NCBI RefSeq assembly: GCF_003334765.1
Contig: NZ_QOWT01000023.1
DNA from: Escherichia coli
Lineage (GTDB): Bacteria > Pseudomonadota > Gammaproteobacteria > Enterobacterales > Enterobacteriaceae
Reading direction: 5' to 3' (one strand)
Length of the DNA: 64,000 nucleotides
In this document: in pieces, positions 55,591 to 56,313 of the stretch
Layout: every line of letters begins with the position of its first letter
How positions within the stretch are numbered: the first letter of the stretch is position 1
Position numbers and translations under genes: made by a program
Notes under the pieces: model-generated
Database searches by the model: none
What the model was told of the DNA's origin: nothing
The model's input: only the letters and a program-made list of their open reading frames with translations

Positions 55591-56313
55591 AGGATATTTA
55601 TTTATGTGCGTCGGGCATGGTGCGTAGCGCCGTGACTGGCGATGTTCTTCAACTCTGGTGGCTGAAGAACGACTAAAAGATGAAAGTCCTTCACTCACCC
55701 GGTGAGGGGAAGTAATAGCGGAAGGCAAGGGGGCATCGCGAGGTGAAATCTGAAGGAAGTCGGATGCAAAATGTTGGCCTGACGAACAGGAAGCGGTTAA
55801 GGCGGCGCAGCGGAGTCAGGTGGTGTAAATCACCAAAGCCCGATACTCACACGGAACGCTGTGACGTACTACCGGCAGGCATAAGCAGGAAAGTCGCGCG
55901 AATTACCCCAGAAGATCTGCAACTCTGCCAGTGTGCTACCGTCCCTGTAACAGCCTGAAGTTGGCCAGGGTAATCAAATACCGGTGTGGTGATTAGGATA
56001 CAGGGTTCAGATGACATCATGGCGCAAGTCATTGAACCTACTAACGACGCCGGATATATGGTCGAAAAGCGCATCGAACAGTATTTGCATCACCCGTGGC
56101 GCCCATATATGGTCAAGTAATATTGGCCACGGTTTTGCATCATCCATATGGTGTCAGTAGCGTGAGTATTGAGAAGATATCTGGTGAGTATGTCCATACA
56201 GTACGGGCACGAGCCTTTAGCCGTTTGACTGTTTTGTTTGTACTCATGATCACTTTGGTGATGCCTCTAATTAGTTGAATCTGATGTATAATACGGGCTT
56301 TTGAGGTTATCTC

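Follow-up and report, generated by a model that had tools for sequence, protein, structure and literature searches.

In a 64,000-nt stretch of Escherichia coli DNA (the window; contig NZ_QOWT01000023.1 of assembly GCF_003334765.1), the 666-bp gap at 55591-56256, flanked by a copy of the insertion sequence (IS) IS200 and a copy of IS1, is in all probability mosaic debris, the largest piece of which is a dead stub from the 5′ end of a group II intron, class C (IIC), of the E.c.I6 lineage. Nearly the whole gap can be assigned to known elements, and the feature is an ordinary one. A preliminary description made from the sequence alone had listed the gap as unassigned sequence without a convincing open reading frame (ORF). 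The gap is real: PGAP annotates no feature in it in any of the 12 RefSeq complete E. coli genomes that carry the identical sequence, its longest ORF encodes 75 aa, and IS1 does begin at 56257 (GGTGATGCC...). The left border had been drawn too early, as IS200 ends at 55602 and not near 55590; once that end is set, the stretch outside the two elements is 55603-56256.

The intron was identified by covariance-model and alignment searches. In an Rfam scan, RF02001 (group II intron D1-D4-3) matched 55732-55902 over the full model (positions 1-170; 56% G+C), with 113.4 bits against a gathering threshold of 32 and E = 1.7e-23. In blastn comparisons, window positions 55606-55941 aligned at 91.1% identity with positions 1-338 of an intact 1919-nt intron on the UPEC132 plasmid NZ_CP040454 (L002:4013-5931; ltrA product WP_021515390), and they represent the first 336 nt of the intron, namely the complete domain I followed by 6 nt of the domain II stem. 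The 5′ boundary, GTGCG (GTGCGTC) at 55606, fits the GUGYG consensus and is set by six independent left flanks, all of which part from one another at precisely this point. Among complete genomes, the first approximately 350 nt of the gap had BLAST matches at about 91% in many E. coli plasmids and chromosomes. The GC-rich, stem-forming stretches noted in the preliminary description are real and belong to intron domain I. Its thought of a group II intron 5′ fragment, which it went on to drop, was correct, although by accident only. The GTGCGCC motif that served as the cue, said to open the region about 25 nt after the tnpA stop codon, lies at 55521-55527, 70 nt before 55591 and inside IS200 (tnpA, 55035-55493; stop codon, 55491-55493), whereas the true 5′ end reads GTGCGTC. 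The other expected domains were not there to be found, as the element breaks off 6 nt into domain II.

This truncation removed everything that the intron would need for activity. The intact UPEC132 plasmid intron carries, in addition to RF02001, matches to RF01998 (domains II/III, 68.7 bits, starting at intron position 333) and RF00029 (domains V/VI, 48.5 bits), and its intron-encoded protein is an uninterrupted 462-aa ORF with RVT_1 and GIIM domains (TIGR04416, 413.5 bits) and no endonuclease domain. The window copy shares the same type of RF02001 match, and its homology to the intact intron stops 6 nt into the domain II stem. RF01998 and RF00029 gave no match at E <= 1 in the 6-kb neighbourhood, nor at gathering thresholds across the 64-kb window; the intron-encoded protein had no tblastn match better than E = 4 in the window, and the 3′ part of the intron had no other blastn match there. 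Domains II-VI and the reverse transcriptase (RT)/maturase are thus missing from the whole window, and the stub is therefore unable to splice or move. Domain I itself scores 113 bits in the window and 139 bits in the intact copy, and its first hairpin has broken pairs, which fits decay after inactivation. The minimum free energy of the 336-nt stub was no better than that of shuffled sequences (z = +0.28); because this measure is uninformative for a domain that depends on tertiary structure, the covariance-model score was used in its place.

The features of the gap and of its immediate surroundings are as follows (L numbers denote comparison loci).

54682-54896, plus strand: STnc100/PasD-family prophage small RNA (sRNA) gene (RF02076, 138.5 bits, threshold 47; terminator scan).
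54893-55602, plus strand: IS200C, 710 bp (alignment of IS200C copies; strain 550 allele; RF01405 in the 5′ untranslated region).
55591-55602, plus strand: right end of IS200C, its last 12 bp.
55603-55605, plus strand: TAT, tail of the 5′ exon and end of the STnc100 terminator T-run (alignment with the IS200-free allele of strain 550).
55606-55941, plus strand: truncated 5′ part of a group II intron, class C (IIC), E.c.I6 lineage (RF02001; 91.1% to the intact intron).
55935-55941, plus strand: GCTACCG, 7-nt microhomology (overlapping ends of BLAST alignments; comparison of the window, L002, L004 and L008).
55942-56106, plus strand: 3′ non-coding remnant of an IS110/IS1111-family element (92.1% to positions 2994-3170 of L008, a Klebsiella aerogenes plasmid).
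56107-56139, minus strand: right inverted repeat and final codons left over from an IS3-family element of the IS911-like type (L008 3162-3199, 94.6% over 37 nt).
56140-56191, no strand: 52 bp without an element match (common only to the 16 genomes that carry the same mosaic).
56192-56256, plus strand: scrap of a lambdoid prophage late region, ended by IS1 (82% over 60 nt in about 1150 E. coli chromosomes).
56257-57022, plus strand: divergent IS1 copy, 766 bp (sequence read directly; IS1 transposase annotated in the identical locus L003).

Among complete E. coli genomes, the mosaic was found by BLAST in 12 at an identity of at least 99% and in four at 92%. In E. coli O55:H7 USDA5905 (L003), the IS cluster stands between the espI serine protease autotransporter gene and a gene annotated as encoding a TOTE conflict-system primase-domain protein, which places the mosaic in an island junction. 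Elsewhere in the window, the whole-window Rfam scan gave a single CRISPR direct-repeat match (RF01317, 50.1 bits) at 41718-41745.

Introns of this kind are widespread in E. coli. E.c.I6-like sequences are present in 1267 of 5426 complete genomes (about one quarter), with near-full-length copies in 833 of these. Most of the copies inspected have a fragmented ORF, and an intact ltrA occurs in a few plasmid copies. The reference E.c.I6 of CFT073 (NC_004431 4320108-4321914) is listed as ORF class C and located in the selC island (Leclercq and Cordaux, 2012; PMC3522654, Table S2). It shares with the window copy the domain I sequence, the GUGCG start and a position a few nucleotides past a terminator hairpin with an exon ending in TAT; the reference keeps domains II-VI and a disrupted ORF, in contrast to the window copy, which consists of positions 1-336 only. 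Conversely, a 19-nt hairpin segment near the 5′ end is kept in the window stub and in intact plasmid copies and lost in the CFT073 reference. The lost segment lies between two GCGCCG repeats (L007 2109-2130), and the same 19-nt deletion is common to most chromosomal copies, the matches of which begin at query position 22. Other relatives, such as E.c.I6-tr1, E.c.F12, F13, F15 and E.c.I4-tr1 (in CP4-6 of K-12), are all immobile truncated relics in IS-rich or prophage-derived DNA (PMC3522654, Table S2). The window stub differs from these in locus and break point and is absent from that 2012 list, which does not cover its carrier genomes. It is a further, previously unannotated example of a catalogued kind of relic, at the edge of the E.c.I6 naming threshold.

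Class C introns usually insert behind terminator stem-loops, and their proteins lack an endonuclease domain. The stub appears to have followed this rule. Six independent insertion sites were compared (the window together with strain 550, the UPEC132 plasmid, CFT073, YJ3, 63-2 and GD33). At all six the intron lies 4-10 nt past a hairpin, and the exon before GTGCG ends in TAT at five sites and in TGT at one. Folding of five of the hairpins showed four to be strong (z = -4.6 to -6.4) and one, that of YJ3, to be weak (z = -2.3); for GD33 the hairpin was recognised by visual inspection alone. The model IIC intron, B.h.I1 of Bacillus halodurans, is described as inserting behind a terminator stem-loop and as using a short intron-binding site 1 (IBS1) (PMC1702495). 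The targeting logic is the same as here, although B.h.I1 is only distantly related in sequence and is complete and self-splicing.

The landing site was probably the terminator of the STnc100 gene, which would make this terminator the 5′ exon. Its stem-loop (54863-54887), followed by a T-run, has a predicted energy of -15.5 kcal/mol (z = -4.6). In strain 550, the orthologous locus is collinear with the window (93.6% identity upstream, 92.3% downstream) and has no IS200 at this position; intron GUGCG stands directly behind the STnc100-family terminator (...ACAGGGGTTTTTTTAT/GTGCG). Deletion of window positions 54893-55602 (710 bp) restores the strain 550 junction, GGGGTTTTTTTATGTGCG, exactly, and the distance from stem to intron is then 8-9 nt in both. 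STnc100 is a prophage-associated sRNA related to PasD (bioRxiv 10.64898/2026.05.13.724894). In the window, a fragment of a DUF3927 gene (54508-54630) lies upstream of the full-length STnc100/PasD-family gene (54682-54896), and the two are a remnant of a lambdoid late region stranded among IS elements.

The limits of IS200C were defined by its copies in 3081 genomes, which align to window positions 54887-55602/55603. The right end at 55602 is also fixed by the IS200-free allele and by a differently flanked STnc100-IS200 copy (L017) ending ...ATATTTATT, which does so without deciding the order of insertion. The left end is placed only to within 6 nt, as a T-run stands before most copies of the element; among E. 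coli IS200C copies, alignments begin 6 nt before the element at many loci. IS200C stands right after the terminator T-run in two STnc100 paralogues that are 88.6% alike overall (window 54887-54893; L001 5004-5930; L017 1320-2254). A preference of IS200C for terminator tails is suggested. In E. coli 63-2 (L012, around 290-300 and 2170-2200), an E.c.I6-like intron has a terminator on one side and an IS200 copy on the other, and it splits the left end of this IS200 after the first two bases (...TTATTGT/intron/GCACAG...), a mirror image of the arrangement in the window. Since IS200 is 3 nt upstream of the intron here, and given the 63-2 arrangement and the two STnc100 paralogues that carry IS200 in an identical place, the terminator hairpins of sRNA genes from prophages could conceivably be shared landing pads for IS200 and class C introns, which are unrelated elements that both depend on single-stranded DNA; we consider this generalization doubtful. 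If it were true, the two kinds of element would repeatedly end up within 2-3 nt of, and disable, one another.

With respect to the order of the two insertions, it is reasonably likely that the intron came first and that IS200C was inserted later, 3 nt upstream of it, as opposed to the intron having used the hairpin at the end of IS200. In the latter case, IS200 would already have stood behind the STnc100 terminator, the intron would have landed 12 nt past the hairpin of the IS200 right end, and strain 550 would have lost IS200 by precise excision. Although on balance unlikely, such a sequence of events is consistent with the strong hairpin at the IS200 right end (55575-55593, with an A/T-rich tail; -15.9 kcal/mol, z = -4.3), with the existence of STnc100-IS200 units without an intron, and with the position of the 63-2 intron 2 nt inside an IS200 left end, by which IS200 and this intron family do land on one another. 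However, an IS200-first order needs an extra step, the excision; the distance of 12 nt from stem to insertion is outside the 4-10 nt of the six sites; and the lineage that is free of IS200 also has an intron stub, truncated at the same point.

The second half of the gap has a different origin. The preliminary description reported no recognised IS terminus and wondered about a remnant of the original cargo of the island; the sequence is instead IS110-family, IS3-family and prophage debris, with two IS ends in it. The intron is joined to the 3′ end of an IS110/IS1111-family element through GCTACCG, which is present both in the 5′ strand of intron domain II and in the IS110-family 3′ non-coding region. 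Positions 55935-56110 are 92.1% identical to L008 2994-3170, located downstream of an IS110-family transposase gene on the K. aerogenes plasmid (NF033542, 334.8 bits). The window retains approximately 170 of the approximately 237 nt of this 3′ non-coding end, including a degraded right subterminal repeat, and no IS110 transposase gene (DEDD/serine type) occurs in this part of the window. The complete element, of about 1.35 kb, is found with the same ends in Rahnella and Yersinia plasmids and has 11-bp subterminal inverted repeats (ATGGACGCCCC / GGGGCGTCCAT). Its ends were defined by L008, L014, L015 and L016 and by E. coli remnants, which share one right end and are truncated to different extents on the left. 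Two other assignments of the second half were tried and rejected. It is not more intron with variant domains II-IV: no intron of E. coli or of a plasmid extends into it, and at other loci it is contiguous with an IS110-family transposase gene. Nor does it derive from the 3′ flank of a hypothetical 389-aa gene, which stands before it on IncFIB plasmids, as neither the window nor L004 has homology to that gene.

Next to the IS110-family remnant, positions 56103-56139 are 94.6% identical to the right inverted repeat of an IS911-like IS3-family element, the motif of which (...AATATTGGCCAC) pairs with the left inverted repeat of that element. The same IS110/IS911-like junction occurs in L005, L008 and L014-L016. 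An IS911-like terminal inverted repeat is the habitual target of the IS110-family element, which always lies inside it (TGAAGTG/element/TGGTCAAC...; L008 1816 and 3165, ends of L014-L016). This specificity is reminiscent of that of IS4321/IS5075 for Tn21-type repeats. Among Klebsiella, Rahnella, Yersinia and E. coli, the 3′ non-coding end is much better conserved than the whole element (about 82%). Such conservation would fit a guide RNA (bridge/seek RNA) whose gene follows that of the transposase; in a consensus structure the covariation term was -0.13, the sequences being too alike for covariation. Homology of strain 550 to the window ends at 56201. Positions 56192-56251 are 82% identical over 60 nt to a lambdoid prophage intergenic stretch between a tRNA-Arg gene and a DUF3927 gene, for example in JJ1887. 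The IS1 that follows has no target-site duplication and was inserted near the tip of an IS2-like element. Its two flanks are unrelated (prophage scrap and IS2-like end), and together with the missing duplication this points to an IS1-associated deletion or recombination.

Several points weigh against parts of the interpretation given here, in which a class C intron of the E.c.I6 lineage landed at the STnc100 terminator, was invaded upstream by IS200C and is now inert. IS200/IS605 elements can excise precisely, and the IS200-free allele of strain 550 could be secondary. When the pairing of exon-binding site 1 (EBS1) with IBS1 was checked in seven copies, the loop GUAAA at 55825-55829 could pair over 5 bp with exon UUUAU in the window, a pairing that was not consistent among the other copies. 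The name of the intron is a further concern, as the 89.6% identity over 317 nt between the stub and E.c.I6 of CFT073 sits on the 10% divergence line of the naming rule (at least 90% nucleotide identity to a named reference, as quoted in PMC3522654); to call it E.c.I6 itself would not be safe, whereas assignment to the E.c.I6 lineage is safe. The 52 bp at 56140-56191 match no element and recur only in the 16 genomes with the same mosaic. Finally, the stub is most likely inert, as judged from its missing parts and from the two terminator-like hairpins that a terminator scan placed directly upstream of it. That the stub, or the adjoining remnant of a putative IS110-family guide RNA, is expressed and still active would be a stronger reading than that of shared landing pads and seems much less likely than the latter.

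Other explanations of the gap fare worse than that of a dead intron stub amid IS debris. A functional structured RNA, whether an ORF-less splicing intron, a retron non-coding RNA or a new sRNA, is very improbable, even though the gap is G+C-rich, matches a structured-RNA model over 170 nt and has had the same 605 bp kept in two lineages that are 8% apart. These lineages diverge by 7.7% in the region, no less than in its flanks (6.4%), and there is therefore no sign of constraint. The covariance-model score is below that of intact copies, with broken pairs, folding is no better than for shuffles, and the two terminators stand upstream. Domain V/VI is absent, and a relaxed Rfam scan of 55900-56270 (E <= 10) returned only two chance long non-coding RNA matches, with no second structured RNA and no retron; no retron RNA (msr-msd) family was matched at E <= 1 or E <= 10, and no RT was found in the window. 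A degraded protein-coding gene, as island cargo, is more improbable still. In the strain 550 copy, PGAP does call a hypothetical protein of 64 aa, but the window has a 1-nt deletion inside that frame, no ORF exceeds 75 aa, PGAP annotates nothing in the 12 identical copies, and in four genera the stretch is conserved as 3′ non-coding sequence at the end of an IS110-family element. Coding potential of 55986-56212 was rejected on the same grounds, namely the indel between homologues and conservation as a non-coding IS end. The least probable of all, to the point of being negligible, is that the gap contains nothing but the IS200 right end and standard IS-flanking sequence, which the preliminary description had named as what would overturn its own suggestion. 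The first 12 bp do belong to IS200; however, IS200C alignments stop at 55602/55603 in thousands of copies, and the 336 nt after them agree with an intron model and with intact introns.

The following history would account for the dead stub. An IIC intron ribonucleoprotein may have recognised the stem-loop of an STnc100-family terminator and reverse-spliced into the DNA 8-9 nt past the stem (...UUUUUUUAU/GUGCG), after which the intron would have been copied into DNA. Subsequently, approximately 1.58 kb of its 3′ part would have been lost, with position 336 becoming joined, across GCTACCG, to 3′-terminal non-coding sequence of an IS110/IS1111-family element; this element already sat in an IS911-like inverted repeat. 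IS200C would then have inserted after the terminator T-run, 3 nt upstream of the intron, and IS1 and further rearrangements would have trimmed the right side. The outcome is a stub that has neither catalytic core nor protein and has two terminator-like hairpins directly upstream; it most likely does nothing.

The finding matters little. Relics of this kind are already known, and no open question depends on the stub. An annotation gap is closed, in that 12 near-identical RefSeq genomes have no feature at this place and a related copy has a spurious 64-aa "hypothetical protein." For the E.c.I6 lineage, the stub records one more retrohoming event, and it provides a clean example of intron death, through a microhomology-mediated junction with an IS110-family element followed by insertions of IS200 and IS1.
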